This document shows, in pieces, positions 1 through 39,432 of a stretch of 39,432 bases of DNA. Every line of letters starts with the position of its first letter. Position 1 is the stretch's first letter. A program made the translations under genes and the position numbers. This DNA comes from a virus. Taxonomy: Duplodnaviria > Heunggongvirae > Uroviricota > Caudoviricetes. The stretch lies in IMG/VR virus record IMGVR_UViG_2706794693_000007; one strand, given 5' to 3'. The notes beneath the pieces are model-generated. The model had not been told where the DNA came from and did no database searches. It saw only the letters and a list, made by a program, of their open reading frames with translations.

Positions 1-14
1 TCGGTTTACGGGAA
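1..14. other. Half of a gix-like recombination site (TCGGTTTACGGGAA), truncated by window start
   Basis: Exact reverse complement of the left half of the site at 1306-1331; matches the GGTTTnCnGGAA-type half-site of Gin/Hin/Cin crossover sites as recalled. Confidence 0.5.
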
Positions 15-353
15 ACGGTAAACAGGGCGGCGAATGCCCTGCCATCGGACGGCACCGCCGTTGCCGCGAACAGGCTGGCAAATGCCCACACAATTAATGG
101 TGTTCCCTTTGACGGGACGCAGGATATCACTATCTCATCAGGAACAGTAACCGCCATAAGACTGGGGTCGGTGACCGCACATATGCCCGGAACATGGGAA
201 AGCTGGGATCTGAATCTGGGGGGCGGCAATGTTCTTACCGGAATTAAAGTACAGGATGTCGGTAAGAATACGGCAGATAACGTCGGCGGCGTGTATTACC
301 GGCCGTTGCAGTATCTGTTAAATGGAGCATGGGTGACGGCTGCAAGTATATAA
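1..353 (+). CDS. Tail fibre alternative variable C-terminal segment (S'v-like), 5'-partial, silent in this orientation
   Basis: Frame open from position 2; first ~40 aa ([26 protein letters not shown]...[12 protein letters not shown]) match the minus-strand fibre after its gix site, then diverge; shared C-terminal RPLQ motif. Confidence 0.6.
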   Translation, partial: GLRETVNRAANALPSDGTAVAANRLANAHTINGVPFDGTQDITISSGTVTAIRLGSVTAHMPGTWESWDLNLGGGNVLTGIKVQDVGKNTADNVGGVYYRPLQYLLNGAWVTAASI

Positions 354-384: not shown

Positions 385-906
385 TTACTGTGGCTGCTCA
401 GGCCATTTAATGGCGTTAAATTCAGCTTCTGTTTTAATGGCGGGTAGTTCCATTTTCTTCACCTGACTGATGTATGCCATCCATTGGGTAAGTGCTGCTC
501 TGTCTTCATCGCTGATGGTGCCCAGTTGTAGCTCCGTTCTCCAGTCATTAATTTTTTCATATGCCTGATTAAGATATGACTGGCGCATTGCTTCCAGTTT
601 TCTTGCGTAGTTAACCGGAATACGGGAGATTATGCCATTATCAAACTTCCAGTTTCCTGAAATATCCGTGCCTTCAGGGAGTTCATCGACCTCAACCACA
701 GAAAACCCCGCAGGATACAGCGCCGAGGCGTCCTGTGATATTGAGCAGATAACGCCGCTGTCAGGTGTTATGCAAAGTTTATATTTTTTGGTGAATAATG
801 GCAGGGATTCGTAGAAATCCTTACCATCTTCACTCTGGAAATACTGAACATTATTACCATATGGCATATTTTCAGGATAATAACGGGTTATATTTTTTAG
901 TTCCAT
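385..906 (-). CDS. Tail fibre assembly protein (Tfa / Mu U-like chaperone)
   Basis: 173 aa; strong RBS AGGAGG upstream of ATG; lies directly downstream of the minus-strand fibre variable part; C-terminal ...KWPEQPQ resembles Tfa family. Confidence 0.75.
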   Translation of the reverse strand: MELKNITRYYPENMPYGNNVQYFQSEDGKDFYESLPLFTKKYKLCITPDSGVICSISQDASALYPAGFSVVEVDELPEGTDISGNWKFDNGIISRIPVNYARKLEAMRQSYLNQAYEKINDWRTELQLGTISDEDRAALTQWMAYISQVKKMELPAIKTEAEFNAIKWPEQPQ

Positions 907-960
907 AAAATCCTCCTGGAAATAAATCTGTTTTAAAATATATTATTTACTGACTATTTA

Positions 961-1537
961 TAACTGAGATACCGTAATCCATGTACCTCCGACTAATTTT
1001 TGCAGGGGTCTGAATGCTATAAAATCGTTTGAAGCATCAACTTTACTGTCAATCTGCAGGCCTGCCATAACATTACCGTACGCAGAGTAATATGCCCCAC
1101 CGTACATTACCTGCCTGTTCTCTGCTCCCAGCCTGATATCCTGGATATATCGGGAATCCGCATCCTGCTGTGTTATACCAGAAGTGATGTTTATGTCCTG
1201 CGTCCCGTCAAAGGGAACCCCATTAATATTTCTTGGGGTGGCGAGTCTATTCGCGGCAACGGCGGTGCCGTCCGATGGCAGAGCATTCGCCGCCCTGTTT
1301 ACCGTTTCCCGTAAACCGACGTTATCGATAAAAGCCCCTTTATCCGGAATGTCTGCGCCGTTCTGCTCCCTGCGCAGGTAACGGTTATCACCTTCGCTTT
1401 TGCTGTAAACATCCAGATTATTACGGGCGGTTCCCTTATTCTCCAGGTCGGCGAGATTCTGATCCTTCGCCAGGGCATTAACGTCAGCGGGACCAAGACT
1501 GTTTTTTGTGGCAAGCGTCCCCAGACCAAGATAACCA
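961..1537 (-). CDS. Tail fibre protein, 3' portion (end of constant part plus variable Sv part); 5' continues at 6894-7275 if the 71-bp overlap is joined
   Basis: Open frame from 1537 to stop at 961-963; translation ...[35 protein letters not shown]...[17 protein letters not shown]; first 71 nt identical to 6894-6964. Confidence 0.75.
1306..1331. other. gix/hix-like 26-bp crossover site (TTCCCGTAAACCGACGTTATCGATAA) inside the tail-fibre gene
   Basis: Two 12-bp imperfect inverted half-sites around a 2-bp core; lies at the constant/variable junction of the fibre gene. Confidence 0.55.
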
Positions 1538-1750
1538 NNNNNNNNNNNNNNNNNNNNNNNNNNNNNNNNNNNNNNNNNNNNNNNNNNNNNNNNNNNNNNN
1601 NNNNNNNNNNNNNNNNNNNNNNNNNNNNNNNNNNNNNNNNNNNNNNNNNNNNNNNNNNNNNNNNNNNNNNNNNNNNNNNNNNNNNNNNNNNNNNNNNNNN
1701 NNNNNNNNNNNNNNNNNNNNNNNNNNNNNNNNNNNNNNNNNNNNNNNNNN
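1538..1750. other. Run of 213 N (unresolved or masked); hides the 5' end of gin
   Basis: N characters in sequence. Confidence 0.95.
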
Positions 1751-2253
1751 GTGCAGGATGTGAGCTGTTTTTCGAAGACAGAATAAGCGGTAAGACAAGG
1801 GAGCGTCCCGGACTTAAACGCGCATTAAAGCGACTCCGGCCAGGGGATACCCTGCTGGTCTGGAAACTGGATCGCCTTGGACGCAGTATGCAGCACCTTG
1901 TCCTTTTAACAGAAGAACTCCGGCAACGCGGCGTTAACTTCCGCAGCATTACGGACAATATTGATACATCCACTCCCATGGGACGTTTCTTTTTCCATAT
2001 AATGGGCGCGCTGGCGGAAATGGAGCGGGAACTCATTATTGAACGTACACGCGCGGGTCTTGCTGCTGCCCGTGCTCAGGGGCGTCATGGCGGCAGACCT
2101 CAGAAACTGACAGAGAAAGAGCGGGAGCAAATCGCCCGTTTGCTGGCTAATGGCGAGTCCCGTAAACAAATCGCACTGATATTTGATATTGGCCTTTCCA
2201 CCCTTTATCGTTATTTTCCTGCCTCACCAGCTCCGTCACCAAAAGTACCGTGA
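1751..2253 (+). CDS. gin: Serine DNA invertase of the Gin/Hin/Cin/Pin family, N-terminal ~24 codons lost in the N-run
   Basis: Translation AGCELFFEDRISGKTRERPGLKRALKRLRPGDTLLVWKLDRLGRSMQHLV...MGRFFFHIMGALAEMERELIIERT...GGRPQKLT closely matches the Gin/Hin resolvase-type catalytic core and C-terminal HTH. Confidence 0.9.
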
Positions 2254-2338
2254 CGCTTTTTTGAATTTCCGCAAAACACATATTTTTCAGCGGTCGCTAT
2301 TCTGACTCTGTTTAATTCAGAAACAGGCAGAAAAGACG

Positions 2339-4393
2339 ATGTCAGACTCCAAGTGGAAAATGCTCTCCGCCATGCCCGGAGAGTTTTCAGTCAAGGTTGC
2401 CGGTGGCACGGTGGCATTTATTGAAAGCCCTTTCCGCCCTTCGGGTAATAAAGGGGGGATCACCTTCGCAGACTGCGTGATCCGCTTCAGCACGAAAGAG
2501 CCATTATGGGTAATGCCGGTATCCGGTAATCCCAGTGCAGAAATCACCAGTTCAGGCGTGACTGGCATCATTCCAATCACATCTGACGTGGCCGGAACGC
2601 TCACGCCCTCCGACTGGAATGCACCGGATAACGCCGGGCCTTCCGGTAGCACGAATGGCAGCAGTTCAGAGCCGGAATATTACTTTGTTGTCATTCTCGC
2701 GGGTCAGTCAAATGGCATGGCCTACGGCGAGGGGCTGCCGTTACCGGATTCGTTTGACCGCCCGGACCCACGCATTAAGCAACTGGCACGCCGCAGTACG
2801 GTAACGCCCAACGGTACGTCGTGTACATACAACGACATCATTCCGGCAGACCACTGCCTGCATGATGTTCAGGATATGAGCGGGATAAACCACCCGAAAG
2901 CTGATCTGGCAAAAGGCCAGTACGGGACTGTCGGTCAGGGGTTGCATATTGCCAAAAAACTGCTTCCCTATATCCCACAGAATGCCGGGATACTTCTGGT
3001 GCCCTGTTGTCGTGGCGGGTCAGCATTCACCACTGGAGCCGACGGCTCATTCAGTGAGGCCAGCGGTGCTTCCGCTGATTCTTCACGCTGGGGGGCCGGT
3101 AAACCTCTGTATCAGGACCTGGTAAGCCGCACCAAAGTCGCGCTGGCGAAAAACCCGAAAAACAAACTTCTGGCTGTGGTCTGGATGCAGGGAGAGGCAG
3201 ACCTTGCCTCAGGAAGCCAGCAGCATAATAGTTTATTCACGGCCATGGTTCAGCAGTTCAGAACTGACCTGGCTCCGCTTGCTGCGCAGTGCGTGAGTGG
3301 AAATGCCACCACGGTGCCGTGGATTTGCGGTGATACCACGTATTACTGGAAAAACGCTGGCACCGATAAATATGAGGCAGTATACGGTGGCTACAAAGGC
3401 AAGGAAGCACAGAAAATTTTCTTTGTACCGTTCCTGACGGATGAGAATGGACAGAGCACGCCAACGAATGCTCCGGCGGAAGACCCGGATATTGTGGCTG
3501 TCGGGTATTACGGTGCAGCATCCCGAACCCAGGGCAGTTTTGTTTCGACACAGCGTGACAGCCATTTCAGCTCATGGGCACGCAGGGGCGTCATTTCAGA
3601 CCGTCTGGCCTCAGCTATTATGCTCCATGCAGGGCGCACGGCTGAACTGATGCGTGGGCAGACCGTGACACCACCGGATGAGAAGCCGTCACCTGATACA
3701 CCATCAAAACCGTCCACGCCACCCGCAGACACCACGACGATGAGTACGCTATTTGCTTACCGGGCATCTGAGTCTGAAGGACGGTTGACACCACAGGGTT
3801 GGGCTGCCGGAGGTGGCAAGGCTCAAATCGTGGATGATGCCGGAGCCAGCGGGGGTAAGGCAATGAAACTGACCAAGGAAACAGGAAGAGCCCCCTGGTA
3901 CCTTGAGCATGATGCTGGTAATGGTGCGGACCTGCTGGGTAAAGGTGGTCTTGTCAGTTGTCGTTTTAAACTCGATGGCGCGCTTACGGCTAATCAGTAC
4001 GCACTGGCGCTGTACTGGCCGGTTTCTGCCCTGCCGCAAGGGGTTACTCTGGAAGGAAATGCCGGTCATAACCTGCTGGCATCGTTCTACGTACAGAGCG
4101 ATGCCACAGACCTTAACGTGATGTATCACAAAGGAAACACGGCGCAGAACACGAAGCTGGGGTCATTCGGCGCATTTAATAACGAATGGCATACGCTGGG
4201 CTTCCGTTTTGCCGGTAACAACAGTATTGAGGTGACGCCGGTCATTGATGGTAAGGACGGGACACCATTCATGCTGTCGCAGTCTCCGGTCGGCACGTTT
4301 ACGGCAGACAAGTTGCGCGTGACCGATATCACTAAAAATGCGACTTACCCGGTACTGATTGACAGTATCGTGGTGGAAGTGAATAACGCGTAA
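2339..4393 (+). CDS. SASA-family (sialate O-acetylesterase-like, NanS-p-like) SGNH hydrolase with N-terminal domain, Pro/Thr-rich linker and C-terminal lectin-like domain
   Basis: 684 aa; motifs YYFVVILAGQSNGMAYGEG (GQSN block) and AVVWMQGEADL (WxQGE(S/A)D block); candidate Asp/His at RDSHFS; linker TPPDEKPSPDTPSKPSTPPADTTT; start codon uncertain (weak RBS). Confidence 0.6.
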   Translation: MSDSKWKMLSAMPGEFSVKVAGGTVAFIESPFRPSGNKGGITFADCVIRFSTKEPLWVMPVSGNPSAEITSSGVTGIIPITSDVAGTLTPSDWNAPDNAGPSGSTNGSSSEPEYYFVVILAGQSNGMAYGEGLPLPDSFDRPDPRIKQLARRSTVTPNGTSCTYNDIIPADHCLHDVQDMSGINHPKADLAKGQYGTVGQGLHIAKKLLPYIPQNAGILLVPCCRGGSAFTTGADGSFSEASGASADSSRWGAGKPLYQDLVSRTKVALAKNPKNKLLAVVWMQGEADLASGSQQHNSLFTAMVQQFRTDLAPLAAQCVSGNATTVPWICGDTTYYWKNAGTDKYEAVYGGYKGKEAQKIFFVPFLTDENGQSTPTNAPAEDPDIVAVGYYGAASRTQGSFVSTQRDSHFSSWARRGVISDRLASAIMLHAGRTAELMRGQTVTPPDEKPSPDTPSKPSTPPADTTTMSTLFAYRASESEGRLTPQGWAAGGGKAQIVDDAGASGGKAMKLTKETGRAPWYLEHDAGNGADLLGKGGLVSCRFKLDGALTANQYALALYWPVSALPQGVTLEGNAGHNLLASFYVQSDATDLNVMYHKGNTAQNTKLGSFGAFNNEWHTLGFRFAGNNSIEVTPVIDGKDGTPFMLSQSPVGTFTADKLRVTDITKNATYPVLIDSIVVEVNNA

Positions 4394-4400
4394 GCAGGAT

Positions 4401-4442
4401 AAAAAAATGCCGCCGGTAAGGGAAAACAAGAAACCGGCGGCA
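4401..4442 (-). terminator. Candidate intrinsic terminator, oriented for the minus strand
   Basis: 9-bp GC-rich stem GCCGCCGGT/ACCGGCGGC with 15-nt loop; run of 7 T follows on the minus strand, only an A-rich tract on the plus strand. Confidence 0.4.
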
Positions 4443-4537
4443 AAAAGATCGTTATATCCAAAGCAAAAAATGCAGTGCACCTTTTTACCTAACAGATATT
4501 ACCGGTGTCAACACCATGTCAATAATTGGGAGGGATA

Positions 4538-4720
4538 ATGACATTTTTACAGCTTATTTTATTGTATTTCTGCACGGCAGTATGTGCGTTATATCTGGTG
4601 AGTGGTGGTTATAAGGCCATCAGAAATTATGTTCGCCGCAAAATTGAGGACGCAGCAGCTGAAAAACTCAGTAAAACAGCGCAGGTAACTCCGCTCCCAA
4701 AAGACCCGACCCAGCCCTGA
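4538..4720 (+). CDS. Small membrane protein (60 aa, one N-terminal TM helix, charged C-terminus), function unknown
   Basis: RBS GGGAGGG 3 nt before ATG at 4538; MTFLQLILLYFCTAVCALYLVSGGYKAIRNY... hydrophobic N-terminus. Confidence 0.5.
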   Translation: MTFLQLILLYFCTAVCALYLVSGGYKAIRNYVRRKIEDAAAEKLSKTAQVTPLPKDPTQP

Positions 4721-4755
4721 TTGCAGGGCTTTATTCCCGCATAAGGAGGATATAC

Positions 4756-5010
4756 ATGCCAGAAATTAAAGGCACCGTCACTGAAGACCTGGTAAAACAG
4801 GCACTGTATTCCGGTGAAGTAAATAAGTTGCTGAAAGCGCAGGTCCGCAAGGATTTTGAGGCACAAATCGACACTTACGTTGATGAAGTGCTGGCAAAAC
4901 TTATTGGGCCAGCAGTTGCGGCCAGTGATGCTGATAATGAGCCGAAAACCGACGCGCAGCCAGAGCAACCAGACCCGGCTCAGCCCGGAACTGACAGTAC
5001 CATGATGTAA
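4756..5010 (+). CDS. Hypothetical 84-aa acidic protein
   Basis: Strong RBS TAAGGAGG 7 nt before ATG; coding-like composition; hairpins downstream. Confidence 0.6.
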   Translation: MPEIKGTVTEDLVKQALYSGEVNKLLKAQVRKDFEAQIDTYVDEVLAKLIGPAVAASDADNEPKTDAQPEQPDPAQPGTDSTMM

Positions 5011-5177
5011 CAATACAAACCGGTGGTGTCCTCTGCCGGTTTGACACTAATGAAAACATCTTTGCCGCTATCCAGCCATATGTAATCGCTGGATAGTATT
5101 TCGTATTCAGAAATATAGCTGCTTATGGAGCAGTCAATCCTGCTTCCCCATCCGGGCAGGCAAATGAACCGGTATCA

Positions 5178-5471
5178 TTAGTCCGATTCACGCTTTTGTA
5201 GAATCGTTCCCAGAATGCTATACAGCTCATTAGCCTGTTGCTCCATCATTGAGACGGAGGCTATACGGTGCAAAGTGATTTCAGGAGGTGGCACACCTCC
5301 ATCTTCTTGCTGTGGAGGAAAAACATAAGATTTAATAAAAAAGTTGAAGCATATGAACTCTCCCGCACTCGAACTGTATTTGCAGGCATCTGAATAATCG
5401 GAAAAATAATCATTATAGATTTCCGCATTTTCAATCATTTTTCGATTTCTCGTCGTTACATGATTGTCCAT
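5178..5471 (-). CDS. Hypothetical 97-aa protein, convergent with the 84-aa gene
   Basis: RBS AAGAGG before ATG at 5471; AT-rich ORF with no recognisable motif. Confidence 0.5.
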   Translation of the reverse strand: MDNHVTTRNRKMIENAEIYNDYFSDYSDACKYSSSAGEFICFNFFIKSYVFPPQQEDGGVPPPEITLHRIASVSMMEQQANELYSILGTILQKRESD

Positions 5472-5594
5472 AGCAGCCTCTTACGCTGGCAATTAACCAA
5501 TTGACTTCTATAAATTAGTTGATTTGTTTGCTTTGCGGTATTCAAATGTACAATCATTCAGCACTTATGCGTTACAGCACCGTTTAAAATTAGT

Positions 5595-5680
5595 GATCAA
5601 ACTCATAAATTTTCGCTAATGACATTTCGTGTTATTTGTTGTATCAATTAAATAAATCAAATCGATCGTTTTTGTCGATC
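5595..5680. promoter_or_regulatory. Upstream regulatory region of com-mom with three GATC (Dam) sites
   Basis: GATC at 5595-5598, 5664-5667, 5677-5680, the last two inside near-direct repeats TCGATCG; Mu mom is known to be controlled through upstream Dam sites. Confidence 0.4.
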
Positions 5681-5727
5681 GATTGAGTGATAAAGATATC
5701 AACAACAAAGCAGGAGGTTATGCGGCC

Positions 5728-5928
5728 ATGTATCGAAACATACGGTGCCGACATTGTAACAAGCTACTGGCACGAGCCAGCTTCAGTTATCTGGAAGTTA
5801 AATGTCCGCGCTGTAAAACCCTCAATCAAATCACATCTCAGAGCGCCACAGAGCACCCCACATACACAAGGAAATCCTGTCGTGGGGAACAGAAAGCAAG
5901 TTACATCCCGTATCATCAGCACGCCTGA
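5728..5928 (+). CDS. com: Com-like zinc-finger translational activator of mom
   Basis: 66 aa; AGGAGG RBS 10 nt upstream; [14 protein letters not shown]...[10 protein letters not shown] with CxxC...CxxC; immediately precedes and overlaps mom as in Mu. Confidence 0.75.
5856..5887 (+). promoter_or_regulatory. Stem-loop sequestering the putative mom start codon (candidate Com target)
   Basis: CCCCAC (5856-5861) pairs with GTGGGG (5882-5887); the 20-nt loop contains AAGGA; GTG at 5882 is in the mom frame. Confidence 0.45.
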
Positions 5929-6619
5929 ACTTATTCACTATAACGACAATATCGTCGGTTATGGCTCCCGTGAGTTACGGGTTGAGACAATAAGTTGCTG
6001 GCTGGCCCGGCTGGTCGTCGTCAATAAACATTACAGCCATCGTTTCGTAAATAATTCCTACCTTCATCTGGGCATATTTTCAGAACGGGAGCTGGTTGGC
6101 GTAATGCAATGGGGTTATGCCCTTAATCCAAACAATGGTGCACGCGTCGTAACTGGCACGCAGAACCGCGAATATATGGAGCTTAACCGGTTATGGCTGC
6201 ATGACTGTATGCCGAGAAACTCCGAATCAAGGGCAATCAGTTACGCGCTCAAACTAATCAGACAACTTTATCCGCAGGTGCAGTGGGTTCAGTCGTTTGC
6301 AGATGAGCGTTGTGGCTGTCTTGGTGTCGTGTACCAGGCAAGCAATTTTGATTATGTAGGCAGTCATGAAACAACATTCTATGAACTTGATGGCGAGTGG
6401 TATCACGAGATTTGCAAGAATGCAATCAAACGAGGAGGACAGCGAGGTGAACATCTGCGGGCTAATATCGACAGAGCCAGTGTTCATAAATTCCGTCAGT
6501 TTCGTTACATCCGGTTTCTGGACAAGAGAGCCAGAAAACGCCTTAACACAAAGCTATTCAAAGTCCAGCCTTACCCAAAACCACAAACAGTTAAAACTGG
6601 TTTGAAAGAGAGTGAATGA
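5882..6619 (+). CDS. mom: Mom-like DNA adenine modification protein; start assigned to GTG 5882, uncertain
   Basis: Long ORF in the frame overlapping the 3' end of com; com-mom architecture, size about 245 aa; no ATG between com and residue ~130 so a non-ATG start is required. Confidence 0.65.
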
Positions 6620-6664
6620 ACGCTTAAAAACTCATTCTAAAACTCAAAAGAAAAGCGCCGATTT

Positions 6665-6681
6665 AGTATCAAATAAGTTGC
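6665..6681 (+). repeat. Prophage end-like repeat (GTATCAAATAAGTTGCG) just downstream of mom
   Basis: 17-nt near-match to GTATCAAATGAGTTGCC at 38755-38771 and to repeats at 38817 and 38902; preceded by GCCGATTT as at 38767. Confidence 0.45.
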
Positions 6682-6691
6682 GTATCGGCGT

Positions 6692-6893
6692 NNNNNNNNN
6701 NNNNNNNNNNNNNNNNNNNNNNNNNNNNNNNNNNNNNNNNNNNNNNNNNNNNNNNNNNNNNNNNNNNNNNNNNNNNNNNNNNNNNNNNNNNNNNNNNNNN
6801 NNNNNNNNNNNNNNNNNNNNNNNNNNNNNNNNNNNNNNNNNNNNNNNNNNNNNNNNNNNNNNNNNNNNNNNNNNNNNNNNNNNNNNNNNNNNN
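6692..6893. other. Run of 202 N (unresolved or masked)
   Basis: N characters in sequence. Confidence 0.95.
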
Positions 6894-7275
6894 TCGCCAG
6901 GGCATTAACGTCAGCGGGACCAAGACTGTTTTTTGTGGCAAGCGTCCCCAGACCAAGATAACCACGGGCCAGACGCTGGGCCTCCGCACCGGCATCAGCA
7001 ATTTCTTTCAGGTTATTTTTCCGGGAAAAGGCATTCGCAGCGATAATGGCTTTAATGGACAGCGTAAGCTGGTTTAACTGCGCCTTATCCGGCTGAATAC
7101 TGGCTTCAGCCAGAATATTCAGCAGTTCGGCCTGGAGAATATTCAGCCAGTCCTGACCAATCCAGCTGATACCTTTTTGTCCGTCACCTTCGGTAAACCA
7201 GGTGGTGGTATTACTCTGCGCCGGTGCCAGCGCAGGCATATTCGCCACGCCGGAATTATTATCAACATGAAACAT
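6894..7275 (-). CDS. Tail fibre protein, N-terminal constant part (Sc), 3' end runs into N-run
   Basis: ATG at 7275 overlapping upstream stop; MFHVDNNSGVANMPALAPAQ...[24 protein letters not shown]; last 71 nt identical to 1467-1537. Confidence 0.75.
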
Positions 7276-14909: not shown

Positions 14910-15161
14910 NNNNNNNNNNNNNNNNNNNNNNNNNNNNNNNNNNNNNNNNNNNNNNNNNNNNNNNNNNNNNNNNNNNNNNNNNNNNNNNNNNNNNNNNNNN
15001 NNNNNNNNNNNNNNNNNNNNNNNNNNNNNNNNNNNNNNNNNNNNNNNNNNNNNNNNNNNNNNNNNNNNNNNNNNNNNNNNNNNNNNNNNNNNNNNNNNNN
15101 NNNNNNNNNNNNNNNNNNNNNNNNNNNNNNNNNNNNNNNNNNNNNNNNNNNNNNNNNNNNN
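14910..15161. other. Run of 252 N (unresolved or masked) spanning the end of the tail tube gene and the start of the chaperone gene
   Basis: N characters in sequence. Confidence 0.95.
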
Positions 15162-18617: not shown

Positions 18618-19565
18618 TTACAGATAATCCGCGACAACCAGCTCCAGCTTGCCCTTCATCTCGTTAGAGACTGTGGCGTTACCGTCTGCGAACAGCTCGC
18701 GCTCCAGCAGCTGCACCGCCTGTTTTTCCAGCGAGGTGGGGACAACAATATGGGTGGGTTTGATGCCGAGTTTGCGGCCACCGTCAGCCTTAAAGTCACG
18801 CATGGCTGACCAGCCGTGCCACAGCGCATCCAGCGTCAGCGGTGACTGCATCATGTAGGCCATCTGCCAGAAGCCGTAGCCCACATTGCGACGGGCGGAA
18901 GCACCGAACACAAACTCGTTATCAGTAAACGCACGGCCTTCATCGACTTTTGTCTGGGCAACCAGTTCGGCTTTGCGGCGATCCTGATAAATCAGCGGTT
19001 TTACCGCGCGGGAGCAGTCAAGCAGATACCAGGCCGGGCCGCTGTAATCCGCCTGTGCACCGACAGAGCCGGTTTTTGCCACAAACATATTGCTGACCAT
19101 CTGTGCATCACCGGAGCCATCCACTTTGGGGTAAACAGGGTGTTCGGTATCAAAGAAGTTCTGGCCGTCATAGCAGGCCGCATTCAGACCATCACGCAGT
19201 GCAGCAAAGACCAGTTCATCCGGTTGTGCCGCAGCGGCACGACCCATTTCCTGGAATAACGGGGAGTAGATGCCGAGATTGTCGTCTTCAAAGTCATCGC
19301 GGCTAATGGCAACGGTGCCTTCAAAGGTTTTGTTCACGATGGCGTAGCCATAGGCTTTCATCTTCTCGATGACGCGGGAGCCGATCCACTCACGGAACTG
19401 CGGGAACTGCCCCAGCCAGCCGTAGGTGTTGGATTTCGAGGTGGACGGCACGGTCATCGCAATTTTCTGGTACTGCGACGGAGCCATGGACATCCCGGCC
19501 TGAAAATCAGAACGGTAGCCCGTCATCAGGGCGGTGATCATCGCCGGTGTAATCGGGGTAGGCAT
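18618..19565 (-). CDS. Major head (capsid) subunit, Mu T-like
   Basis: 315 aa, follows protease/scaffold gene with overlapping stop/start. Confidence 0.85.
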   Translation of the reverse strand: MPTPITPAMITALMTGYRSDFQAGMSMAPSQYQKIAMTVPSTSKSNTYGWLGQFPQFREWIGSRVIEKMKAYGYAIVNKTFEGTVAISRDDFEDDNLGIYSPLFQEMGRAAAAQPDELVFAALRDGLNAACYDGQNFFDTEHPVYPKVDGSGDAQMVSNMFVAKTGSVGAQADYSGPAWYLLDCSRAVKPLIYQDRRKAELVAQTKVDEGRAFTDNEFVFGASARRNVGYGFWQMAYMMQSPLTLDALWHGWSAMRDFKADGGRKLGIKPTHIVVPTSLEKQAVQLLERELFADGNATVSNEMKGKLELVVADYL

Positions 19566-21349: not shown

Positions 21350-21470
21350 ATTGCCTCCGCATAAAGGATGAATATAAAATAAACAGGCGGTCAGTGTACG
21401 CTTAACTGGTAAAGTCGGTGCCTGCCTCCGGGTGGATCATGTATGCGGGTTCGACCCCCGCCACTGACCG

Positions 21471-38680: not shown

Positions 38681-38754
38681 TAGCATTAGCCCGCATTTTG
38701 CACTATATCGAGTATTTCGCATTGTTTGGAACGCCTTAAAAGACTAAAACCACA

Positions 38755-38913
38755 GTATCAAATGAGTTGCCGATTTTATAATAAATGACTAATTATTGCA
38801 CAATCGGTATCAAATAGACCTTATCCGCACATCTAGCCATCACCTGTTTTATTTCAGTATCTTACAGGTGATTTCACCTCCTTTCACTAAACCCCTTGTC
38901 GGTATCAAATGAT
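38755..38913. repeat. Prophage end region with three direct copies of a GTATCAAAT(G/A) motif (candidate transposase binding sites)
   Basis: Copies at 38755-38766, 38817-38827, 38902-38913; sequence ends ...TTCA at 38916. Confidence 0.5.
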
Positions 38914-39237
38914 TCACCTGGTTATATGTCGCCAGTCGATACCTTCCAGCAGCATCGCCAGCTGCGCCTGTGTAAGGAACACTTTGCCATCACGGGCTGA
39001 CGGCCAGGCGAAGCGCCCACGCTCCAGCCGTTTGGTCAGGAGGCACAGTCCGTCACTGGTGGACCACAGCAGTTTAACCTGACTGCCGCTGCGGCCCCGG
39101 AAAATGAAAACATGGCCGGACATGGGATCGTCTTTCAGCGCCGTCTGTACTTTCGCAGCCAGGCCGTTGAAGCCATTTCTCATATCGGTGATACCGGCAA
39201 CCAGCCAAATTTTGATCCCGGAAGGTAACGGGATCAT
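38914..39237 (-). CDS. tnpB: IS66-family TnpB (Orf2), probably with altered C-terminus at the prophage junction
   Basis: MIPLPSGIKIWLVAGITDMRNGFNGLAAKVQ...LEGIDWR characteristic of IS66 Orf2; stop codon lies in the phage-end TTCA. Confidence 0.8.
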   Translation of the reverse strand: MIPLPSGIKIWLVAGITDMRNGFNGLAAKVQTALKDDPMSGHVFIFRGRSGSQVKLLWSTSDGLCLLTKRLERGRFAWPSARDGKVFLTQAQLAMLLEGIDWRHITR

Positions 39238-39432
39238 CGCTTCAGTTCCTGTATCAGCAGAGTCAGGAGCTTTTCGCTGACATTGCCATTGAAGCGGAGC
39301 GTCCCGTGCCGGAACGTTACCTCACAGCTGATACTGAGGGTTTTCGGGTCCTCTGCGAGCGATTCTGGCTGTTCGGCAGCTGCATCGAGAGTCACAGGAA
39401 GTAGCTGGGGGCTCTCTGAAGAAGGTAATAGC
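38917..39432 (-). mobile_element. IS66-family insertion sequence fragment (tnpA-tnpB), lacking its transposase gene on this side
   Basis: IS66 orf1/orf2 pair with ATGA overlap; expected third gene replaced by prophage sequence. Confidence 0.7.
39234..39432 (-). CDS. tnpA: IS66-family TnpA (Orf1), 3' part only
   Basis: Open frame ending ...NGNVSEKLLTLLIQELKR with stop overlapping the tnpB start as ATGA. Confidence 0.6.
   Translation of the reverse strand, partial: LLPSSESPQLLPVTLDAAAEQPESLAEDPKTLSISCEVTFRHGTLRFNGNVSEKLLTLLIQELKR

Follow-up and report, generated by a model that had tools for sequence, protein, structure and literature searches.

A Mu-like prophage end joined to the interior of an IS66-family tnpB gene in Shigella sonnei

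Here we describe the junction between the tip of a Mu-like prophage and an IS66-family element in a stretch of viral DNA of 39,432 nucleotides (IMG/VR record IMGVR_UViG_2706794693_000007; hereafter the window). The evidence supports reading this junction as a genuine transposition joint between the phage tip and the interior of the element, and a simple insertion of the phage into the IS66 tnpB gene is the probable origin of the arrangement. A first-pass annotation had proposed that a Mu-like prophage lies inside an IS66 element, and that proposal stands: the IS66 side of the joint (window 38927–39432) is collinear with, and 100% identical over 506 nt to, a phage-free S. sonnei locus. The window itself is a Shigella sonnei draft scaffold: it matches a Sanger draft contig without a difference (100%) across 10.5 kb, and its identity to the complete genome CP176614.1 is 99.99%.

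The right 24 kb of the window is a Mu-like prophage that reads on the minus strand, and the features discussed here are collected in Table 1. The putative repressor gene is divergent from ner, MuA, and MuB, with MuB adjoining the transposase gene; in relatives the repressor is annotated as a transcriptional regulator. Early, lysis, head, and tail genes of Mu type lie upstream, according to the annotation of L007—the prophage of E. coli 600029, which is 99.6–99.97% identical to the window. Precomputed Pfam matches and RefSeq annotation of identical or near-identical copies add Gam, Mor, a Gin-invertible tail-fibre segment flanked by inverted repeats (1–79 and 1241–1319), Com, and Mom, with an extra 684-aa SASA/DUF6645 gene between gin and com. 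No tRNA genes were found in the window by ARAGORN.

Table 1. Features of the window that bear on the prophage, its ends, and the joint with IS66.
Feature	Coordinates	Strand	Basis or remark
Phage repressor (c-like), 181 aa	38135..38680	+	HTH_3 at 21.8 bits, below the Pfam cut-off of 23; placed and oriented like its Mu counterpart
ner-like early regulator, 76 aa	37719..37949	-	Pfam HTH_35
MuA-type transposase, 695 aa	35629..37716	-	HTH_Tnp_Mu_1 (PF02316), Mu-transpos_C (PF09299)
MuB-type AAA+ target-DNA activator, 310 aa	34614..35546	-	Phage-MuB_C (PF09077), AAA_22
Repressor-proximal (left, attL-like) prophage end	38681..38926	.	Non-coding, 246 bases; tip base 38926 (...CACCTGGTTATA)
Tip-nearest GTATCAAAT, L1-like candidate transposase-binding site	38902..38910	+	TTTGATAC 18 nt from tip on the inward-reading strand
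Second GTATCAAAT, L2-like candidate site	38807..38815	+	113 nt from tip
Third GTATCAAAT, L3-like candidate site	38755..38763	+	165 nt from tip
gin, SASA/DUF6645 gene, com, mom piece	1751..6691	+	Flipped relative to the rest; ends 56 nt before the right tip (BLAST against L007)
Scaffold gap, 202 N	6692..6893	.	Conceals the right phage tip (56 nt) together with its flank
Chimeric tnpB ORF, 107 aa	38914..39237	-	TnpB_IS66 (Pfam PF05717), E=1e-37; aligned to intact copies
3' part of IS66 tnpA	39234..39432	-	Identified from intact matching copies annotated in RefSeq; 65 codons and a stop, overlaps the start of tnpB
TGTC, four IS66 bases adjoining the tip	38927..38930	+	Predicted 4-bp target duplication copy (GACA in tnpB sense), from 8 paired insertions

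Both ends of the phage carry multiple candidate transposase-binding repeats in inverted orientation. The three exact copies of GTATCAAAT reported at the repressor-proximal end were confirmed, and a fourth exact copy, at 6666–6674 near the opposite phage end, is the innermost right-end repeat; four copies compare with 0.25 expected in the window, and none of 100 shuffles reached four. Measured as TTTGATAC, the repeats stand 18, 113, and 165 nt from the left tip and 18, 40, and 75 nt from the right tip—the 18-nt distance on the right, seen in L007, is the same as on the left. In Mu, the repeats are spaced at attL and packed at attR, and on this pattern the three repressor-proximal copies read as L1-, L2-, and L3-like sites.

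The tip can be placed to the base by comparison with other insertions. In more than 10 independent insertions of the same phage—in sgrR, bcsA, elyC, citD, a diguanylate cyclase gene, torZ, a T6SS locus, and others—the sequence is common through 38926 and divergent from the next base, and in alignments to intact IS66 copies the IS66 identity starts at 38927 (TGTCGCCAGTCG...). Because the other insertions diverge after 38926 and IS66 begins at 38927, we place the phage tip at 38926, with the left joint reading ...GGTATCAAATGATTCACCTGGTTATA|TGTCGCC. The bases in between the earlier estimate and this one (38917–38926, CCTGGTTATA) are without counterpart in intact IS66 and present at every other insertion of the phage; the tip therefore lies 10 bp further out than the ...TTCA at 38916 that had been taken for the phage end. 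Comparison with intact IS66, the route suggested for locating the junction, did fix it to the base, at 38926/38927 rather than 38916. On the phage's own strand the left tip is 5'-TATAACCAGGTGAATCATTTGATACC... (5'-TATAACCAGG...); the right tip, defined likewise from more than 20 flanks, is ...GGTATCAAAAAAATCGCCGCGCTATA-3' and ends ...GCCGCGCTATA.

Across the joint, a single reading frame combines IS66 and phage DNA. Bases 38927–39237 of the chimera are IS66 tnpB codons 1–103 plus 2 nt, and phage bases 38914–38926 complete codon 104 as His and then supply Ile-Thr-Arg-stop: the split codon CAG becomes CAT, and the phage adds ATA ACC AGG TGA. The last four codons (H-I-T-R) are phage-encoded, and so is the stop—TGA, read as TCA on the + strand at 38914–38916—in agreement with the earlier observation of an IS66 tnpB frame that ends in phage DNA. 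Intact tnpB is 348 nt long and encodes 115 aa with the C-terminus ...DWRQPKRLLTSLTML; the chimera ends ...EGIDWR-HITR* where the intact protein ends ...EGIDWRQPKRLLTSLTML*, and uninterrupted copies carry the intact form, not the truncated C-terminus. Since the window keeps tnpB nucleotides 1–311 of 348, the joint lies inside codon 104 of the 115-codon gene, with 37 nt left to the end of its stop codon and 87 nt to the start of tnpC, rather than at the tnpB/tnpC boundary as had been supposed. The 3' end of tnpA lies beyond tnpB, as annotated before, with an ATGA overlap between the two genes; tnpC is indeed absent on this side, none being present in the window beyond the joint. The last base of the window is the exact base at which IS600 is inserted in tnpA of related genomes, and the stop at this position looks like a short-read contig end.

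The exact 107-aa chimera was found in Shigella sonnei only, in 108 contigs and also in the complete genome CP176614.1, where the left phage tip is at 1,015,140 (in L007, a relative, the phage measures about 38,633 bp). The left flank in that genome runs from an IS110-family element through a 65-aa tnpA fragment, IS600, and the rest of tnpA to the truncated tnpB, which leads directly into the phage; the distance between IS600 and the left tip is 506 nt. The chimeric TnpB cleanly marks a single sub-lineage of S. sonnei.

The same locus was retrieved without phage from 27 S. sonnei contigs—53G and 26 others, most of them complete chromosomes. Its order is IS110, tnpA interrupted by IS600, tnpB (115 aa), a tnpC remnant (152 aa), phage_tail_N, DUF4376, and ipaH. 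Where the window turns to phage, the phage-free locus reads ...GGCGACA|GCCTAAGCGG... and continues ...GACAGCCTAAGCGG...; the IS66 right end, ...GCACGCTTAC, follows between the tnpC remnant and a cryptic-prophage tail-fibre gene (phage_tail_N, 388 aa), and in the empty locus 582 nt separate the break from this right inverted repeat. In the window itself neither end of IS66 is included. Of the features expected of the IS66 family, a TnpB_IS66 frame overlapping tnpA is present and a TnpC DDE transposase is missing: in the window the phage interrupts, and in the empty locus tnpC has an internal deletion that leaves 152 aa only. In addition, tnpA is interrupted by IS600 in the S. sonnei loci that lack the phage, and likewise in the complete genome that carries it. 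The copy is therefore an IS66 derivative, not a functional IS66, and was already defective when the phage arrived. A continuation into tnpC beyond the other prophage end had been suggested as a check; given the state of this copy, an intact transposase gene is not to be expected on the far side.

The left 7 kb of the window must be considered with care, as the window is a mis-ordered scaffold. It contains three N runs (1538–1750, 6692–6893, and 14910–15161) and none from 15162 to 39432, and the lengths of these runs are estimates, not masks: 252 N stand for 242–245 nt in all relatives. The piece at 1–1537 consists of the invertible tail-fibre segment and a further 201 nt of overlap with the beginning of the main piece, and the natural order is the reverse complement of 1751–6691, then 1–1537, then 6894–39432. 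A sister scaffold of another S. sonnei lineage (L049) has the same odd arrangement, joined by one N that follows a complete IS600; in further scaffolds of that series IS600 leads on into unrelated regions, three in all. Because the gene order is normal in complete genomes with near-identical phages, including that of the L049 lineage, a scaffolding error is the best reading of the flipped piece. We also considered the N runs as equal-length masks, with the right tip truly joined to the tail-fibre gene by auto-integration or inversion. This was rejected: 252 N replace 242–245 nt, the order is normal in complete genomes, and IS600 joins the sister scaffolds to unrelated regions.

The phage group leaves a target duplication of its own kind. 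In all eight insertions for which both ends could be read the duplication is 4 bp (AACA, GACG, TAGA, TACG, CATA, GTAT, GCTG, and GATA), confirmed for two of them, torZ and the 53G tail-fibre gene, against empty sites; the 5-bp duplication earlier assumed for this prophage is seen in none of the eight. Nor do the termini follow Mu's TG...CA pattern—the window type is 5'-TATA...TATA-3' and relatives have 5'-TGTA...TATA-3', so that right termini are always TA and left termini TA or TG. The left tip is 5'-TATAACC here, compared with 5'-TGTAACC in two others read (S. sonnei 53G and E. coli 89-3156). Insertion is near-random and has no attachment-site specificity: the flanks differ in dozens of cases, each genome examined has its own, and an ORF that runs from inside mom out through the right tip (MNERLK...SPRY) has about 95 different host-encoded tails in the protein collection. 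It is possible, if somewhat doubtful, that the E. coli/Shigella Sp18-like phages use a 4-bp stagger with TA at the transferred 3' ends, and hence a transpososome geometry unlike that of Mu. No description of the duplication length or TA termini for this phage group was found in the literature searched, in a search that was not exhaustive.

Taken together, the protein families and end anatomy suggest the following mechanism. An Sp18-like transposable phage would have integrated by MuA/MuB-type DDE transposition into the chromosome of an S. sonnei sub-lineage, its target being the tnpB interior of a resident and already non-functional IS66-family copy. The repressor-proximal tip (5'-TATAACCAGG...) is joined after tnpB nucleotide 311 of 348, which cuts TnpB at residue 103 and gives it a 4-residue phage tail; a 4-bp staggered cut (GACA) would have been duplicated, by analogy with all other insertions of the phage group. 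On the same analogy, the far joint is predicted to read ...GCGCTATA|GACAGCCTAAGCGG, with the tip as ...GCCGCGCTATA|GACAGCCTAAGCGGCTGCTGACC...; the far side would run ...AAAAAAATCGCCGCGCTATA and then GACAGCCTAAGCGGCTGCTGACCTCCCTGACCATGCTGTAA, placing the last 37 nt of tnpB after GCCGCGCTATA. Beyond this tnpB end we would expect the 152-aa tnpC remnant, the IS66 right inverted repeat, and the cryptic-prophage tail-fibre gene.

One sequence hints at this far joint: L102, a 721-nt Sanger contig of S. sonnei, begins 15 nt past the predicted duplication and spans the tnpC remnant into the tail-fibre gene, and phage-free genomes offer no reason for a contig break at its start, which may count as indirect support. 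Searches for the joint itself returned no match: the predicted right joint (GCGCTATA, 0–2 N, GACAGCCYAAGCGGCTGCTGACC) is absent from viral and genome-representative contigs, as is the control left joint, and a shorter form is absent from all fetched loci. The control left joint had no match in the genome, viral, and metagenome collections; since it is missing from the same collections, the right-joint negatives carry no weight. Similarly, the predicted 58-aa right-junction ORF is not in the protein collection, where the control—the real 112-aa junction ORF of 53G—is likewise missing. In exact-protein look-ups, CP176614.1 was not among the matches listed with the tnpC remnant at three flank sizes, and its right end was not among the matches listed for DUF6645, GP46, the baseplate protein, MuB, or Mom (299-aa and 245-aa).

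It is this far side that leaves room for an alternative, one that we regard as unlikely: the left joint is true, and the two phage ends no longer flank, or never flanked, one target, so that neither the IS66 remainder nor a 4-bp repeat stands at the right end. Replicative or intramolecular transposition, recombination between two Mu-like prophages, or inversion or deletion mediated by IS600 are possible routes to such a state. The predicted far joint was not found in the collections or fetched loci, CP176614.1 was not among the listed loci with the tnpC remnant, and in the window the right-end piece stands apart from the rest in reverse orientation; these observations would fit separated ends, although L102 breaks where the right end is predicted and near-identical phages in complete genomes keep the normal gene order. 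IS600 is near the left tip, a second Mu-like phage lies 1.21 kb off in 53G, and IS elements heavily rearrange S. sonnei genomes, so that a later rearrangement is possible. A hybrid with the 53G prophage, whose flank is GCTGCCAGGTG, was also considered: across 8 kb of late genes 48 positions distinguish it from the window, and a crossover in the near-identical gin–mom region is conceivable. A 99.98% identical phage lies in torZ in another S. sonnei lineage, with IS600 65 nt from its right tip; however, that copy is a full simple insertion in its own right, flanked by torY on its left and torZ on its right and showing a GTAT duplication, and is not the missing half. The idea that the torZ copy (CP180015.1) is the same prophage with hybrid flanks was rejected on the same grounds—its left end adjoins torY and the GTAT duplication is present. 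All eight other insertions examined are simple and have duplications.

The remaining alternatives concern the joint itself. That the phage ends ...TTCA at 38916, inserted at the tnpB/tnpC boundary with a 5-bp duplication, draws on the resemblance of TTCA to the canonical Mu terminus and on the tnpB frame stopping at 38914–38916; this reading is refuted, as the next ten bases are absent from intact IS66 and kept at every other insertion, intact tnpB runs 37 nt further, and duplications are 4 bp in eight of eight pairs. Even less can be said for a chimera made by assembly or scaffolding from a phage contig and an IS66 contig. The window does have three N runs and at least one mis-oriented piece, but no N run interrupts 15162–39432, the identical joint recurs in a complete genome and in 108 contigs from many assemblies, and the break falls on the very base that other genomes define as the phage tip; such a chimera is thereby excluded. 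We give equally little credence to the transposition of IS66 to a place beside a resident prophage: adjacency alone would suggest it, and it is excluded, since the interruption of IS66 falls within tnpB instead of at the inverted repeat, which lies 582 nt beyond the break, and IS66 with the same flank but without phage is present in most S. sonnei genomes examined. Simple insertion of the phage into tnpB therefore remains the reading that we prefer.

A transposable phage in an IS remnant is expected behaviour, and the finding is therefore ordinary—a Mu-like phage in such a remnant is an already known kind of event. It carries little biological weight, as transposable phages land almost anywhere and an insertion into a dead IS has no obvious phenotypic cost. 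The presence of a second Mu-like phage of different immunity 1.21 kb away in S. sonnei 53G, a separate lineage, is a weak hint that there may be a local insertion hot spot. Only the 4-bp duplication and the TA termini come as a mild surprise, in that two textbook Mu features fail. In practical terms, base-accurate ends are now available for a prophage type that is very common in E. coli/Shigella: T(A/G)TAACCAGG...GCCGCGCTATA, flanked by a duplication of 4 bp. Software or annotators that assume Mu's TG...CA and 5 bp will misplace the ends of such prophages.

For the insertion site, the closest labelled IS66 relatives are of the ISSfl4 and ISEc8 types, and intact three-gene IS66 copies in E. coli are 99.6% identical over 506 nt to the window region. 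In contrast to those intact copies, there is only a fragment here, and the S. sonnei copy is defective even without the phage.

The phage itself can be compared with Mu, D108, and SfMu. The MuA and MuB families are common to all, and so are a Gin-type invertible segment, Gam, Mor, Com, and Mom; the end architecture is also the same, with three repeats that are spaced on the left and packed on the right, and insertion is near-random with no site-specific integrase, as here. DNA similarity to Mu-type records was not detectable in the phage collection at megablast level. Mu, D108, and SfMu differ in having a 5-bp duplication and TG...CA termini, whereas the phage described here has 4 bp and T(A/G)TA...TATA, and the 684-aa SASA/DUF6645 gene between gin and com is extra relative to all three.

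A closer match is offered by a group of Mu-like phages found in E. coli and Shigella. Its described example is Sp18 from E. coli O157:H7 Sakai, reported as an intact Mu-like phage (PMC2669165). Mu-like phages of STEC are reported at variable loci, often within other mobile elements, as were six of 10 in STEC CC119 (PMC10132054). By gene order and sequence relatives, the window phage appears to be a member of the group that Sp18 exemplifies. The 53G prophage has a different immunity region, with a 176-aa repressor compared with 181 aa here, and the 5'-TGTAACC left tips of 53G and E. coli 89-3156 differ from the 5'-TATAACC of the window phage. Sp18-like phages share the order repressor, ner, MuA, MuB, kil, gam, mor, lysis, head, and tail, followed after the tail genes by the invertible tail-fibre segment, gin, com, and mom or a methylase. 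The left end of the window phage is 80–94% identical at the DNA level to prophages in O157 and other STEC genomes, and the Sp18-like phages have variable insertion sites that include the inside of mobile elements, as is the case here.

The window is a draft scaffold containing three runs of N (1538-1750, 6692-6893 and 14910-15161), and its pieces are not all arranged as in intact relatives: the gin-to-mom piece (1751-6691) is inverted and the piece carrying the invertible segment (1-1537) is out of place, with 6894-6964 repeated as 1467-1537. Relative to the tail-fibre gene, the invertible segment lies in the opposite orientation to that of the intact prophage of E. coli 600029 (L007), and both orientations are present among sister contigs. 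Coordinates of the features discussed here are collected in the table.

Features of the Mu-like prophage and its insertion site (L012, complete S. sonnei genome CP176614.1; L056, S. sonnei 53G)
Feature	Location	Strand	Remark
Inverted repeats, 79 nt, 95% complementary	window 1-79 and 1241-1319		flanking invertible tail-fibre segment
SASA (carbohydrate esterase) + DUF6645 gene, 684 aa	window 2339-4393	+	between gin and com/mom
mom-internal outward ORF	window about 6611-6691, on into gap; L007 39713-39849		
Duplication and phage-tip evidence	window 38923-38930; L007 1213-1220 and 39846-39853; L062/L046/L113; L056/L019/L063; L114/L115		
IS600 in IS66 tnpA	L012 8546-9806; L056 about 640-1890		

At the other extremity of the window, its last base, 39432, is the exact point of IS600 insertion within IS66 tnpA, and phage-free S. 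sonnei genomes carry the same insertion. In L013, a phage-carrying draft contig, tnpA is uninterrupted by IS600, perhaps because the assembly strayed into another copy of IS66. Such a copy of the deleted derivative (tnpB plus a 152-aa tnpC) is found in S. sonnei FUDU01000129.1 (L101) with a different right flank; hence, some S. sonnei genomes have the defective derivative in two or more contexts.

Other Mu-like insertions are also found in S. sonnei. Strain 53G carries a second Mu-like phage inside the neighbouring tail-fibre gene (L056 3603-3607), 1.21 kb from the equivalent of window 38926/38927; its repressor, of 176 aa, is a different one, and its left tip reads TGTAACC. Together with the window insertion, this makes two independent Mu-like insertions at most 1.2 kb apart, from different lineages, in one species. 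In another S. sonnei lineage (about 78 contigs; CP180015.1; L030/L046/L062), a phage 99.98% identical to that of the window forms a simple insertion in torZ, with an IS600 65 nt from its right tip.

One ORF (...KKSPRY) begins within the 3' end of mom and extends past the right tip of the phage into the host sequence. About 95 versions of it are present in the protein collection, each with its own host-encoded tail, one per insertion site. Between two head-morphogenesis genes, the RefSeq annotation of L007 places a 'tRNA-OTHER' (18674-18753; window about 21390-21469); ARAGORN predicted no tRNA in the whole window.

In this Mu-like phage group, target duplications are 4 bp in all eight insertion pairs, two of which were compared with empty sites, and the termini read 5'-T(A/G)TAACC...GCGCTATA-3', whereas Mu generates a 5-bp duplication and has TG...CA ends. 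The SASA/DUF6645 gene is present as identical copies across thousands of assemblies (4464 index blocks); Mu has no gene at this position.
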